Below the pieces are notes generated by a model. That model was not told the DNA's origin and made no database searches. It was given only the letters and a program-made list of their open reading frames with translations. Positions 5,020 to 12,301 of a DNA stretch of 32,000 nt are shown here, in pieces. The stretch comes from an uncultured bacterium (lineage in GTDB: Bacteria; Patescibacteriota; Gracilibacteria; UBA1369; PNNO01). Where the stretch lies: the NCBI GenBank assembly GCA_963704705.1, contig OY969931.1:120001-152000 (forward strand), written 5' to 3'. Within the stretch, counting starts at the first letter, position 1; each line of letters opens with the position of its first letter. Made by a program: the position numbers and the translations under genes.

Positions 5020-6001
5020 AGCAAATTCCAGCCCACTCATCTTCATGCCCTTCGAATACGGCGGGTACTGGTACTGTCCGCAGGGGCAAAACGGCACCTA
5101 CACCCACAATACGGATCGTTTGCGATACGCTATCGATCTGAACGGCGGGCACGGTGTCGACAACGATGCCTTCGGTGAACAACTCTTTGCTCCAGTCAAT
5201 GGAACAATCGTCGAAGTTCGTGATGGCCTCATGGATTTTGACAACAATGGAAGCAGCAATGCTGCCAACTACTACGGCTGGGGCAATACCATCGTCATCC
5301 TGGACGAAGGAGGGGACTACTACATTCGGTTTGCTCACATGAAGTATCTCTCAACCGAACACCTGATGAAAGGTGACGAGGTGAAGATGGGTGACTACAT
5401 CGGCCAGGTTGGTCAGACCGGACATTCCACCGGCTCCCATCTTCATATCCAGGTCATGCTCAAGACGCAGGAGTGGAATGATATCATCGGAGAGGATTCC
5501 TCCCCCTTCACCTTCGCCGAGGGCTACATCGACACTGGTGACTGGATCAAGTCTGGCCTCAGCTACAACATGTCCATGCTGGACAACAACGGCGAGACCA
5601 CGCTCAGTCATTTTTTTGATGACTACTATACCTACTACAACTCCACTCAGTGGCAGACCAAGTACGGTACATACGGCTACGCAGGCAAGGACTTTCGTCG
5701 GCACTACGTTTCTTCGTACAACGACAATTCCATGTTCAGCTGGCACTTCTCTGTGAAGCAGTCCAGTCTGTATATGCTGTTCGTTACGTTCGAGGACAAC
5801 GCAGCCAACGACACCAAAGTCGAGTATTATCTCGACGGTCAGAAAATCAGGACGCTCACCCAAAAAGTGGGCGGGCAATTCTACAAGTACATCGGCCTCC
5901 GCTACATCAGCGCCGGTGCTTCGCACACTGTTTCGGTTCGCGGCACTTCGCCTGGCAAATACGTGATCGCTGATGCACTGGTGCTGCGGAAGTTTGGCTG
6001 A
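4955..6001 (+). CDS. Secreted M23 family metalloendopeptidase (lysostaphin/LytM-like) with a non-catalytic C-terminal beta-rich domain
   Basis: Signal peptide MRHGKIAIVITLLFGICFLGGKA. M23 core YAIDLN...YIRFAHMKYL...GDYIGQVGQTGHSTGSHLHIQV (HxH motif). The C-terminal ~140 aa end in KYVIADALVLRKFG, which is reminiscent of golvesin-C-like or carbohydrate-binding modules (low confidence). The ATG at 4955 is preferred over the track start at 4895. Confidence 0.85.
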   Translation: MRHGKIAIVITLLFGICFLGGKANSSPLIFMPFEYGGYWYCPQGQNGTYTHNTDRLRYAIDLNGGHGVDNDAFGEQLFAPVNGTIVEVRDGLMDFDNNGSSNAANYYGWGNTIVILDEGGDYYIRFAHMKYLSTEHLMKGDEVKMGDYIGQVGQTGHSTGSHLHIQVMLKTQEWNDIIGEDSSPFTFAEGYIDTGDWIKSGLSYNMSMLDNNGETTLSHFFDDYYTYYNSTQWQTKYGTYGYAGKDFRRHYVSSYNDNSMFSWHFSVKQSSLYMLFVTFEDNAANDTKVEYYLDGQKIRTLTQKVGGQFYKYIGLRYISAGASHTVSVRGTSPGKYVIADALVLRKFG

Positions 6002-6008
6002 TAACTGT

Positions 6009-6055
6009 CGTACTACCGAAATCCCGTACTAGTACTACGGATTTACGATAGTACG
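6009..6055. repeat. Imperfect ~47-bp inverted repeat built from four GTAC motifs, centred on the perfect palindrome GTACTAGTAC (6026-6035)
   Basis: The sequence is cGTACtaccgaaatcccGTACtaGTACtacggatttacgataGTACg. The outer arms cgtacta (6009-6015) and tagtacg (6049-6055) are exact complements. Confidence 0.6.
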
Positions 6056-6067
6056 CAATATAACCTT

Positions 6068-6112
6068 AAAGGCACGGTAAACAACCTGTTTGTTTTGCTG
6101 TGCCTTTTTTTA
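6068..6112 (+). terminator. Rho-independent terminator of the M23 gene
   Basis: The stem aaaggcac (6068-6075) pairs with gtgccttt (6100-6107). An inner pairing joins aaacaa and ttgttt. A T-run follows at 6105-6111. Confidence 0.75.
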
Positions 6113-6138
6113 ATTACGGATGTTGTTTATACGCACTC

Positions 6139-6209
6139 CATCCCCGGGGATGAACTGTAAATTCCGCATAAATAAACTCAATGCCAAATCTAATCTCCTC
6201 CCGGGAGGA
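6139..6209. repeat. Two perfect 14-bp GC-rich palindromes 57 bp apart: CATCCCCGGGGATG (6139-6152) and TCCTCCCGGGAGGA (6196-6209)
   Basis: Both are exact reverse-complement palindromes read from the sequence. They lie between the island terminator and the pcrA stop. Function is unknown. Confidence 0.6.
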
Positions 6210-6262
6210 AAATGTTTAGGCAAATGAATGGCGCATAAACAGCAATTTTTTAGCAATTTTCG

Positions 6263-8452
6263 CTATTCCTCTATCTTAACCAACGGCGCCACACTCAAAG
6301 CCAAACGCTTTATTCCAACAGCCGCATCTTTAAAGGCAATCGTGGCTACTTCACCTTGAACACTAACAACTACTCCTTCACCGAAAGTTGTGTGAATAAC
6401 CCGGTCGCCGTCACGCAAATCAATGCATGTTGAAACTTCTTCTTCCGGAACAGCCTTCATTGAGCCGCCAAGTCCAGCCATGAATCCGCCGCCAACAGAC
6501 ATATGAGTTCGCGGCTGTCCATAAATATAAACCAAAGCATCAGGTATATCTCCGATAAACTGCGAAGGCGCATTTGACTGAGCTTCTCCGTATAGCATTC
6601 TCTGGCGGGCATTAATCAAAAATAGTCTTTCCATTGCTCGGGTAATCGCCACATACATTAAGCGTCTTTCTTCTTCGAGCTCTTCAGGCTCGAGCATTGA
6701 ACGCGAATGCGGAAAAATTCCTTCTTCAAGTCCAATAATAAATACATTATCAAATTCAAGGCCTTTTGCGCTGTGAACAGTCATTAATACAACAGCGTTT
6801 TCTTTGTCATCCATTGAATCCACGTCGCTGATCAACGAAATTTCCTCTAAAAATACCGAAAGGCTAACCCCCGGATTTAGCAAATCATACTTTGAAGCAA
6901 CTGAAATTAATTCCGCGATGTTTTCGTAGCGTGCTTCGCCTTCAGGCGTGCCGTCCATAACAAACTCGCGGTAGCCCGATAATTTAAGTACGTGTTTGAT
7001 AACACCGCTTGCGGAAAATTCGTCATTTGCTTTTTTGAGCTGCTCAATTAATTTCACAAACTTTTTTATTGCTGCAATTTTGCCATCGTTAAGGTCGCTT
7101 ATTTCTTCGCATCTGCGCATTGCATCGTAGAATGATAACCCGTTTCGCCCCGCGTGTGTTTGCAAAGCTTCAATTGTTTTTGTGCCGATTTTGCGTGCCG
7201 GAGTGTTGATTATTCGGAGCAAGCTAACTGAGTCAGCAGAGTTTTGAACAACACGTAAGTAAGCAACCATGTCTTTAACTTCTTTTCGTTCGTAGAATCT
7301 TATCCCTCCAACGATTTTATATGGCAGGCCGTATCTTAAAAACACTTCTTCAATTGCGCGCGATTGTGCGTTTGTTCTGTATAAAACAACAAATTTATTG
7401 TATGGAGGAGCTTCATAATCTGCTGTGAGCTCACGTATTTTTTCAGCGATTAATTCGCCTTCGTGGCGTTCGTTTCTTGCTTCGATCACAGTGATTTTTT
7501 CTCCGCCTTCTTTTTCTGTCCACAATTTTTTGTCTTTTCGTTTTCTGTTTTTAACAATGATTTCGTGCGCAGCTTCAAGAATGATTGAAGTTGATCTGTA
7601 ATTTTGCTCCATCATTACAATTTTCGCATCAGGATAATCTTTTTCAAAATCCAGAATATTTCGGATATCAGCGCCGCGCCAACTGTAAATGCTTTGGTCG
7701 CTGTCACCGATTACACAAATATTTCTGTACTTTTCAGCAAGCAATTTAACAAGAGTATACTGCGCATGATTGGTATCCTGGTACTCATCCACGCAAATAA
7801 ATTTAAATTTTTCCTGATAATAATCGAGCACATCCGGATTTGCCTGAAAAAGCTCAATTGTTTTCATTAATAAATCATCAAAGTCGAGCGCATTATTTTT
7901 TCGTAAAGCATCCTGATAAGGCCCGTATAATTCGGCAACACGCTCGGTAAAATAATTGTGCGCCATTGATAAATATTTTTCAGGGTCAATAAGTTCGCTT
8001 TTCGCATTTGAAATATGATTCAAAATCGCTTTTGGATTTATCTGTTTTGAATCGATATGCCTTTCTTCCATCAGTCTTTTCATAAGGATTTGCTGGTCCG
8101 CAACATCGTAAATAGTAAAATTATTTTCATAATCGAGTAAGTGTAAATTTCGTCTTAAAATCCTTACGCAAGTCGAGTGAAAAGTGCCCACAGTTGGTTC
8201 ACTTGTTAAATTCGAACCTTCCAATAGCTTTTTTATTCTTTCTTTCATTTCATTGGCAGCCTTGTTCGTAAAAGTCACAGCCAGAATATTCCAGGGTGAA
8301 ATACCATGTTTTTTTATAAGATAAGCAACACGATGAGTCAGCGCGCGGGTCTTGCCGGAGCCGGCTCCCGCAATAATAATCAGCGGCCCAAGCTCGTGGG
8401 TAACCGCTTCTTTTTGCTTATCGTTCAAGTTTTTTAGGATTGCTTCCGGCAT
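6263..8452 (-). CDS. pcrA: ATP-dependent DNA helicase PcrA/UvrD (SF1)
   Basis: Walker A AGAGSGKTRALTHRVAYLI, DEYQDT motif, YRS, VMTVHSAKGLEF and a C-terminal Tudor-like GDRVIHTTFGEGVV. The protein is 729 aa. Confidence 0.92.
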   Translation of the reverse strand: MPEAILKNLNDKQKEAVTHELGPLIIIAGAGSGKTRALTHRVAYLIKKHGISPWNILAVTFTNKAANEMKERIKKLLEGSNLTSEPTVGTFHSTCVRILRRNLHLLDYENNFTIYDVADQQILMKRLMEERHIDSKQINPKAILNHISNAKSELIDPEKYLSMAHNYFTERVAELYGPYQDALRKNNALDFDDLLMKTIELFQANPDVLDYYQEKFKFICVDEYQDTNHAQYTLVKLLAEKYRNICVIGDSDQSIYSWRGADIRNILDFEKDYPDAKIVMMEQNYRSTSIILEAAHEIIVKNRKRKDKKLWTEKEGGEKITVIEARNERHEGELIAEKIRELTADYEAPPYNKFVVLYRTNAQSRAIEEVFLRYGLPYKIVGGIRFYERKEVKDMVAYLRVVQNSADSVSLLRIINTPARKIGTKTIEALQTHAGRNGLSFYDAMRRCEEISDLNDGKIAAIKKFVKLIEQLKKANDEFSASGVIKHVLKLSGYREFVMDGTPEGEARYENIAELISVASKYDLLNPGVSLSVFLEEISLISDVDSMDDKENAVVLMTVHSAKGLEFDNVFIIGLEEGIFPHSRSMLEPEELEEERRLMYVAITRAMERLFLINARQRMLYGEAQSNAPSQFIGDIPDALVYIYGQPRTHMSVGGGFMAGLGGSMKAVPEEEVSTCIDLRDGDRVIHTTFGEGVVVSVQGEVATIAFKDAAVGIKRLALSVAPLVKIEE

Positions 8453-11159: not shown

Positions 11160-11224
11160 TTTATTACATTAAAAGTGTTATTGGTGTTGAATTATTGCAT
11201 AATAATCGTATGTTTTCAAGAAAG

Positions 11225-12190
11225 TTATGCAACCAGACTTTTACCGCCAATACCGCCCATTTCACCACTGCCTGTAGTGCGCATATAAATTTTCGCAGCA
11301 GGGGAGTCCTCAGGATAAAGAGTTGCAGGATCCTGCATTACATCAACAACATAATATTTACCATCTTCCATCATCACAATGTTCCATGCGTGCCCGAAAC
11401 CTTTTTTATAAAAATGACCTCTAATCAAACGCGATCTTATGCCATTTACATCAGCAAGCAGCTTATATAAAATCGCTCTGTGTCGGCAAACCCCAAAAGA
11501 CAAATCACCTAATTTAACTTTTTGAGTATTTCGTTTTTTCATTATTTTTTCAATTTCATCCTCGGTATCTTCTTCGATTTTTGGGTTTCTTGAGCCTCCA
11601 AAATGATTAGACACAAACATAGCAAGAGCAGAGATTTTTTGTTTTTGTGTAGAGAAATTGCTTAACCATTTTTTTGATTCTTCGATGATTATATTTAATT
11701 TATGATCATTTTCAACATCAACAACGATCACTTCTCTGTTTGGAGATATTGGCTCATATTTCCCTTTTTTATTTCTTTCATATTTCATTTTTCTGCCACC
11801 ATCAACAAACCCATTTGGAATTCTGTCTGCAAAATCCAAAAACCCTTTTTTTAAATAATCCAGACTCACTTTTCTATCTTTAACTTCACTGTCATAACCT
11901 ATAACTTTATATAAAGATCTTTGTGTTAAAAATGTAATTTCACCGCTTTTAGGATCAACACTAATCTGGCGGATAGGACTTAGTTGGTCGCCCTCTTTAA
12001 ATGTCATAACTTCACCTACTCTAACTGTACTTAAAACCTTCCCTCTAATAAAATCGCCGATAGATGTAATGGTGTGCTTTTCGTTATCCAATTGCAGTTT
12101 TCGAACTGTTATTTCAGCTCCTTTGGGAATAAGAATCTGGGTGTAATCAGAATCGCTATGCGCAGGATCTAATAATATTTTTTCATGCAT
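11225..12190 (-). CDS. Hypothetical protein with a C-terminal transglutaminase-fold, EDR1/CTR1-N-terminal-like putative cysteine peptidase domain
   Basis: The segment FVSNHFGG...LGDLSFGVCRHRAILYKLLADVNGIRSRLIRGHFYKKGFGHAWNIVMMEDGKYYVVDVMQDPATLYPED follows the pattern I recall for plant EDR1/CTR1 N-terminal domains (HMGG...G.CRHRALLFKVLAD...R.V.G...N......Y.VDLM..PG.L.P.D). Candidate Cys, His and Asp residues are all present. Confidence 0.6.
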   Translation of the reverse strand: MHEKILLDPAHSDSDYTQILIPKGAEITVRKLQLDNEKHTITSIGDFIRGKVLSTVRVGEVMTFKEGDQLSPIRQISVDPKSGEITFLTQRSLYKVIGYDSEVKDRKVSLDYLKKGFLDFADRIPNGFVDGGRKMKYERNKKGKYEPISPNREVIVVDVENDHKLNIIIEESKKWLSNFSTQKQKISALAMFVSNHFGGSRNPKIEEDTEDEIEKIMKKRNTQKVKLGDLSFGVCRHRAILYKLLADVNGIRSRLIRGHFYKKGFGHAWNIVMMEDGKYYVVDVMQDPATLYPEDSPAAKIYMRTTGSGEMGGIGGKSLVA

Positions 12191-12301
12191 TTTTGTTTGT
12201 TTTTGTTGATTAAATTATACCATAAAATAAGTTTTTCGCCAATAGCGGTGCATTTCCCTCTCAACCCAGTCGTCCTGGTCGACCCATCCGAGCGAGAAAT
12301 A

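Follow-up and report, generated by a model that had tools for sequence, protein, structure and literature searches.

We report that a window of 32,000 nucleotides from an uncultured bacterium (GTDB lineage Bacteria; Patescibacteriota; Gracilibacteria; UBA1369; PNNO01), comprising positions 120,001 to 152,000 of the forward strand of contig OY969931.1 (assembly GCA_963704705.1), encodes a genuine full-length member of PF14381, the EDR1/CTR1/ARMC3 peptidase-like domain family. The protein, P0001, has 321 residues, and its stand-alone bacterial two-domain architecture is new. An original prediction, made by a model from the sequence alone, had described it as a eukaryote-type EDR1/CTR1-like domain of transglutaminase fold with intact catalytic residues, lying in a small genome. 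The genome is small, with 1,374,545 bp in one contig (99% complete), and named relatives of the protein place it in Candidatus Peregrinibacteria, a group of the Patescibacteria. We consider it reasonably likely that P0001 is a cytoplasmic cysteine hydrolase (a protease, isopeptidase, or deamidase) that acts through Cys235-His267-Asp283 and is aided in substrate selection by an N-terminal barrel, though we infer catalysis, chemistry, and substrate. The features on which this account depends are as follows, with positions counted within the window.

11225 to 12190, reverse strand: coding sequence of the EDR1-type protein P0001, 321 residues, ATG start, stop codon included (open reading frame list and translation).
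11318 to 11872, reverse strand: PF14381 domain, residues 107-291 (Pfam, with the same coordinates from a six-frame genome search).
11486 to 11488, reverse strand: Cys235 (TGC), predicted nucleophile, motif G-V-C-R-H-R-A (alignments and model).
11390 to 11392, reverse strand: His267 (CAC), predicted general base, motif G-H-A-W-N (alignments and model).
11342 to 11344, reverse strand: Asp283 (GAT), predicted third member of the triad, motif V-V-D-V-M (alignments and model).

The open reading frame is real, and all the motifs quoted in the original prediction were found in its translation. Homologues can be aligned from about residue 5 through the C-terminus, which supports the start codon. Cys235 is the sole cysteine of the protein. 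A hydrophobicity check found neither a signal peptide nor a membrane segment (the peak Kyte-Doolittle mean over 19 residues was 0.78), in agreement with the prediction that no signal peptide is present.

Comparison of P0001 with Pfam gave a match to PF14381 (EDR1_CTR1_ARMC3_pept; E value 9.3e-31, 107.7 bits, cut-off 27) that extends over positions 4-202 of the 203 in the profile. Overlapping this were a match to PF01841 (Transglut_core; E value 6e-6, 26.9 bits, cut-off 23) and a weaker one to PF04473 (DUF553; E value 3e-4). A significant match to an EDR1-type or transglutaminase-like profile had been set beforehand as a test of the prediction, and both PF14381 and PF01841 supplied one. All hallmark motifs of PF14381 are present in P0001, namely DGF-DGG, RE-x-I-x-VD, G-x-C-R-H-R-A, H-A-W-N, and the final D. 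Pfam identified no further domain, and in particular none of the kinase or armadillo fusions typical of named family members. An NCBIfam scan returned no significant match, and the ESM Atlas gave weak leads only, with a chordate PF14381 cluster at the top (0.89). The domain had been recognized correctly in the original prediction, but its size had not: it covers about 185 residues from residue 107 rather than the C-terminal ~130, leaving about 105 N-terminal residues outside it rather than ~190. PF14381 has been classed beside peptidase families C71 and C93 and as highly similar to them (PMC10318531). The domain is already recognized by automatic Pfam annotation, and for the host genome this is an ordinary accessory gene. 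As a separate observation, the DGF-DGG sub-domain (residues 107-187; window 11630-11872, reverse strand) resembles the C-terminal part of Aquifex aq_1966 (2arh) and, likewise weakly, the engineered aq_1966 fusions 4zsv, 4zsx, and 4zsz, all at non-significant E values of 0.014-0.06.

An AlphaFold2 model of P0001, built from a 62-sequence alignment, had a mean predicted local distance difference test score (pLDDT) of 95.2 and a predicted template modeling score of 0.93. In this model, residues 107-291 adopt a transglutaminase/papain-like fold with the triad residues at canonical positions: Cys235 opens a helix (235-248), His267 lies within a strand (265-273), and Asp283 directly follows another (279-282). 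Failure of the three residues to form a triad in a structural model had been named beforehand as refuting the prediction; their placement on the helix and strands of the predicted structure agrees with a triad. Foldseek returned only two matches with E values below 1e-3, 3isr (a putative cysteine protease from Cytophaga) and 9crn (Streptococcus pyogenes TglA), at 3e-4, followed by TgpA and animal transglutaminases. VIA-align, a structural aligner independent of Foldseek, placed TglA (Z score 10.8) and LapG (9.0) at the top; the animal transglutaminases TG3, factor XIII, and TG2 scored 7.8-8.2, arylamine N-acetyltransferases 6.3-7.3, and the pseudomurein endoisopeptidases PeiP and PeiW 5.2-5.5. 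A sequence search of solved structures gave 9crn as its sole match (E value 2.8e-7), confined to the core, with Cys, His, and Asp aligned; no solved structure of any PF14381 member was detectable by this search.

Conservation was examined in 172 non-identical domain sequences and in smaller alignments of 7 and 62 sequences. Cys235, His267, and Asp283 were invariant in the 7-sequence alignment, and His267 was also invariant among the 62 sequences and present in 170 of the 172 domains. Each of the three residues was retained in at least 90% of every group within the 172, and the Cys (GVCRH), His (GHAWN), and Asp (VVDVM) said to be intact in P0001 are all there. The cysteine was kept in 21 of 22 Peregrinibacteria-type domains, 33 of 35 kinase-fused eukaryotic-type domains, and all 28 domains taken from other bacteria with named genomes. 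His and Asp were both found in 35 of 35 kinase-fused eukaryotic-type domains and in essentially all Peregrinibacteria-type and other bacterial domains. For the closest kinase-fused relatives, an intact triad is the norm. Besides the triad, the hallmark motifs were nearly invariant in the bacterial and eukaryotic domains of the 172, and near-invariant positions were G127, G132, E153, D162, R236, H237, R238, K243, D247, W269, N270, and Y302.

The PF14381 domain is flanked by two further elements.

11876 to 12190, reverse strand: N-terminal domain, residues 1-105 (models and profile search).
11228 to 11266, reverse strand: C-terminal tail, approximately residues 309-321, G-G-x-G-G-x-S (alignments).

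When residues 1-105 were modeled alone (pLDDT 91.5), they formed a helix (13-20) plus a six-stranded bent sheet. In the model this is a small beta-barrel, and it is specific to the Peregrinibacteria-type family, with a conserved ‘LDP..D.DY’ motif at its N-terminus. In profile and genome searches, a profile of this domain matched only proteins or open reading frames of 290-390 residues that also carry the EDR1-type domain. Assignment of the barrel to the Sm/LSm (Z score 5.0), Hfq (4.2), or PH (3.4-3.8) folds was rejected, as all of these fell below the noise guide in a search of 48,161 chains. The glycine-rich tail is kept in most Peregrinibacteria-type proteins and in some eukaryotic-type ones. 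It may act as a pseudo-substrate near the papain-like active site, or else undergo autoprocessing there.

We next consider how P0001 relates to the eukaryotic domains. The relatives compared included the best 150 representatives, among which plant and animal members did not appear. With the family profile, kinase fusions ranked next after the full-length proteins, and every match bearing a name was from a eukaryote: Balamuthia and Cavostelium (Amoebozoa), Diacronema (haptophyte), Lentomonas (euglenid), Anaeramoeba (metamonad), and Pseudoscourfieldia (green alga). For kinase fusions bearing no name, we infer the label eukaryotic-type. The Pseudoscourfieldia marina protein (P0049, 1006 residues) joins the EDR1-type domain to five DUF285 repeats as well as a protein kinase, and other protist architectures place ankyrin or kelch repeats ahead of the EDR1 domain and kinase. 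Against PF14381, the Peregrinibacteria proteins scored 90-107 bits over the full profile; Planctomycetota-, Verrucomicrobiota-, and DPANN-type domains scored 46-65 bits, with partial coverage.

A tree of 172 rows split the other bacteria from the Peregrinibacteria-type and eukaryotic-type domains with an SH-aLRT (Shimodaira-Hasegawa-like approximate likelihood ratio test) support of 99. In a tree of 78 rows, built under LG+C20 with posterior mean site frequencies, the other bacteria again formed a clan (100/100) apart from these two groups, and the eukaryotic-type domains formed a clan of their own (95/88), present in 92% of bootstrap trees. Rooting on the other bacteria, P0001 diverges first together with P0002, a metagenomic homologue 76% identical to it (94/89), and the eukaryotes arise beside a long-branched pair, P0031 and P0043 (94/83). 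A single Peregrinibacteria-type clan never appeared in bootstrap trees, yet the approximately unbiased test does not reject it (p 0.29), so that the Peregrinibacteria-type domains may be sister to the eukaryotic ones or the eukaryotic ones may be nested within them. As judged from these phylogenies, no other prokaryotic domains in the sample stand nearer to the eukaryotic domain than the Peregrinibacteria-type ones, and none of the eukaryotic lineages included gave rise to them recently.

Recent capture of the gene from a eukaryote was accordingly rejected. The bacterial proteins are not nested in the eukaryotic clan, and GC content (0.352) and GC content at third codon positions (0.261) match those of the neighboring gene dgt (0.351 and 0.244), which argues that the gene is not a recent import from a compositionally different donor. 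The original prediction had suggested kinship with the ancestor of the eukaryotic domain as one possibility, and this receives real though not conclusive support, since the Peregrinibacteria-type proteins form one clan with the eukaryotic domains (100/100) without being nested in them. A larger scenario is conceivable but somewhat doubtful: the Peregrinibacteria-type proteins could be the closest surviving prokaryotic relative, and possibly the source lineage, of the eukaryotic domain, which would have passed between a bacterium resembling those of the Candidate Phyla Radiation (CPR) and the eukaryotic stem before the supergroups diverged, its original role being that of a free-standing active cysteine hydrolase. 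The grouping with eukaryotic domains offers a specific case, open to testing, in which CPR bacteria and eukaryotes would have exchanged a gene long ago.

The family is rare among prokaryotes. We found PF14381 in none of 4 genomes of the same genus, none of 12 of the same family, 3 of 48 elsewhere in the order (one with a tandem pair), and none of 400 genomes drawn evenly across the phylum, while among other Planctomycetota it was present in 1 of 150. Scanning a single genome of each species for a pattern yielded 39 loci in total, three of which were full-length Peregrinibacteria loci. Matches to the domain only came from Verrucomicrobiota, Planctomycetota, Margulisbacteria, Myxococcota, Actinomycetota, Pseudomonadota (including an uncultured gammaproteobacterium), and one DPANN archaeon. 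The domain is therefore not confined to eukaryotes, and the description eukaryote-type fails in the sense of eukaryote-only, although the Peregrinibacteria-type proteins group with eukaryotic domains in trees. An exhaustive profile search collected 5,535 representatives with E values of at most 1e-3, and 73 at or below 1e-30. The full two-domain architecture was seen in approximately 20-25 clusters of that search, nearly all of them metagenomic singletons, and the full-length proteins bearing names all belong to Peregrinibacteria or Peribacteria. In a Peribacteria metagenome-assembled genome, two diverged two-domain copies of 329 and 387 residues stand in tandem beside a RelA/SpoT gene (L007:4697-5686 and 5968-7131; also G033, L003/L005).

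Within the window, the gene is followed on the same strand by an HD-domain dGTPase-like gene (dgt), nrdR (overlapping dgt by 26 nt), a YkuD L,D-transpeptidase gene, and a PcrA/UvrD helicase gene; upstream lies a divergently transcribed XerC/D-type recombinase gene (xerC). Annotation confirmed dgt and nrdR as the neighbors named in the original prediction. Two features were recorded between xerC and dgt.

11202 to 12298, reverse strand: segment of about 1.1 kb, comprising the gene and its upstream region, missing between xerC and dgt in relatives (comparison with genomes G002 and G007).
12214 to 12242, reverse strand: promoter-like site TTGGCG-17-(TG)TATAAT, whose end lies 23 nt upstream of the ATG (10 of 12 consensus positions matched in a scan, with an extended -10 TG).

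In G002 (same genus, 99% complete) and G007 (same family, 100% complete), xerC and dgt are directly adjacent. Similarity between the window and G002 is lost on the xerC side near position 12299 and restarts near 11201, at a conserved box before dgt; together with the adjacency in relatives, this indicates about 1.1 kb extra in the present genome. In place of the gene, the G002 spacer (L050:4730-4990) holds 18-bp tandem repeats with the unit GCCTAGCCTGGCTACACC, broken by about 100 N. This run of N qualifies the inference of a gain, yet a PF14381 match is absent from the entire G002 genome. A GC-rich stretch of about 60 nt, at approximately 12245-12300 of the window, is unlike the G002 repeat array. 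The gene is thus a rare accessory gene within an otherwise conserved xerC / dgt-nrdR block. The promoter-like site ahead of it is a pattern match only, as such sites are no more numerous in the region than in shuffled sequence. A second promoter-like sequence, TTGAAA-17-AATAAT, precedes dgt and is followed by the box TGCAATAATTCAACACC (together at window 11183-11219, reverse strand). The box is kept in G001 and G002, which indicates that dgt-nrdR, lying downstream of the inserted gene, has kept a control region of its own.

Several assignments based on this setting were considered and rejected. A conserved operon with dgt-nrdR is contradicted by the four different neighborhoods of four Peregrinibacteria homologues (among them SLT/PNP/DHPS, a tandem copy with RelA, and PrsW/UvrA) and by the conserved box upstream of dgt in relatives that lack the gene. 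Cargo of a mobile element was dismissed because searches of phage records, plasmid records, and viral contigs turned up no relatives, and the adjoining recombinase is a resident XerC/D-type gene that is present in relatives without the insert. PADLOC gave no match to a defense system.

We then weighed what P0001 might do. As a cysteine-dependent amidohydrolase, it would act in the cytoplasm. The thiolate of Cys235, activated by His267 and with Asp283 orienting the histidine, would attack an amide carbonyl in a protein or peptide, belonging to a peptide bond, isopeptide bond, or glutamine side chain, and the resulting thioester intermediate would be resolved by water. The N-terminal barrel, which is packed rigidly on the core in the model, probably selects or positions the substrate. 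Several points weigh against a hydrolase. In plant CTR1 and EDR1, the N-terminal regions are known to bind proteins. Enzymes with transglutaminase or acyl-transfer chemistry are built on this fold too. The cysteine is gone in P0018 and P0052, and C-R-H-R is altered in P0024, P0031, and P0043, which suggests that catalysis is not required in all members. Finally, no conserved gene neighborhood hinting at a substrate was found among the Peregrinibacteria homologues.

These points lend themselves to other readings. P0001 could be a non-catalytic scaffold, a protein-binding module of the kind assumed for the plant N-terminal regions in which the triad is kept for structural reasons. The relatives that lack Cys or C-R-H-R fit this, and the literature describes the domain's role in eukaryotes as unknown, with activity known for no PF14381 member (PMC5874906). 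We nevertheless regard a scaffold as unlikely, given that the triad and about ten surrounding residues persist in at least 90% of the sequences from bacteria and eukaryotes, although the rest of these sequences is only 25-40% identical, and that the predicted nucleophile is the only cysteine of P0001, a pattern typical of active enzymes. The same triad might instead serve a transferase, cross-linking proteins as transglutaminases do or transferring acyl groups as arylamine N-acetyltransferases do. By structure, the animal transglutaminases and the N-acetyltransferases come nearly level with the peptidases. Most characterized bacterial transglutaminase-like proteins are hydrolases, however. The profile and the published classification (PMC10318531) also place the domain nearest to peptidase families C71 and C93, and a transferase is given a low probability.

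The effector-like role raised in the original prediction would have P0001 exported or injected to act in another cell, either a host or a partner and perhaps eukaryotic, mimicking or attacking an EDR1-type pathway there. CPR bacteria are often symbionts, the gene is a patchy accessory within a conserved block, and its domain is closest to the eukaryotic ones. Yet the protein has no signal peptide or membrane segment, which sets it apart from the signal-peptide-like starts of Planctomycetota- and Verrucomicrobiota-type homologues, and no secretion-system genes were found among the annotated neighbors. Phage, plasmid, and viral-contig relatives were likewise not found, and the position of the bacterial proteins outside the eukaryotic clan runs contrary to recent capture of a host gene. 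An effector is the least supported of the three alternatives, and we consider it very unlikely. A cytoplasmic cysteine hydrolase is the reading that we retain.

Comparison with known systems places P0001 more precisely. LapG of family C93 (4fgo) is a calcium-dependent periplasmic enzyme that cleaves a surface adhesin. It shares the fold and the order of the triad (Z score 9.0, root-mean-square deviation 3.7, 126 residues, 10% identity), which indicates a common fold and not family membership; P0001 lacks the export signal that a periplasmic enzyme would carry, and no adhesin or LapD-like genes were found among its annotated neighbors. The C71 enzymes PeiW and PeiP (8jx4 and 8z4f) cleave isopeptide bonds in the archaeal cell wall, acting from the exterior, and carry wall-binding repeats. 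They share the transglutaminase-like Cys-His-Asp core with P0001, though the structural similarity is weak (Z score 5.2-5.5). TglA, a transglutaminase-like domain protein (9crn), is the best structural match, aligning 201 residues over model residues 23-318. It differs in having 15% identity, a sequence match limited to the 50-residue catalytic core, and C-N-G-Y in place of C-R-H-R; our literature search did not find a paper on its function.

The EDR1-type domains of Planctomycetota, Verrucomicrobiota, Margulisbacteria, Myxococcota, and DPANN belong to the same Pfam family and have the triad in 28 of 28 cases. They form the separate clan described above, with partial matches of 46-65 bits, and are without the N-terminal barrel. 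Many members of this other clade (P0074, P0079, P0100, P0102, P0103, P0110, P0117, P0152, and P0153) start with a signal-peptide-like sequence, suggesting exported enzymes, whereas the Peregrinibacteria-type proteins have no such starts.

With the named members of PF14381, namely the plant Raf-like kinases EDR1 and CTR1, Toxoplasma TgTKL1, and animal ARMC3, P0001 shares a full-length profile match and the hallmark motifs. It differs from them in being bacterial and a stand-alone protein without a kinase, ankyrin, kelch, or armadillo part, and in the small beta-barrel ahead of the domain, which was seen in none of the eukaryotic EDR1-type proteins examined. In eukaryotes, the domain occurs in plant kinases of ethylene signaling and immunity, in an essential Toxoplasma kinase, and in a sperm and cilia protein. 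P0001 is small and soluble, has a single cysteine, keeps all the conserved residues, and yields a model of very high confidence, and it is therefore a practical test object. For this unexplained eukaryotic domain, it offers a tractable model with an intact triad, suited to activity-based probing, substrate trapping, and crystallography.

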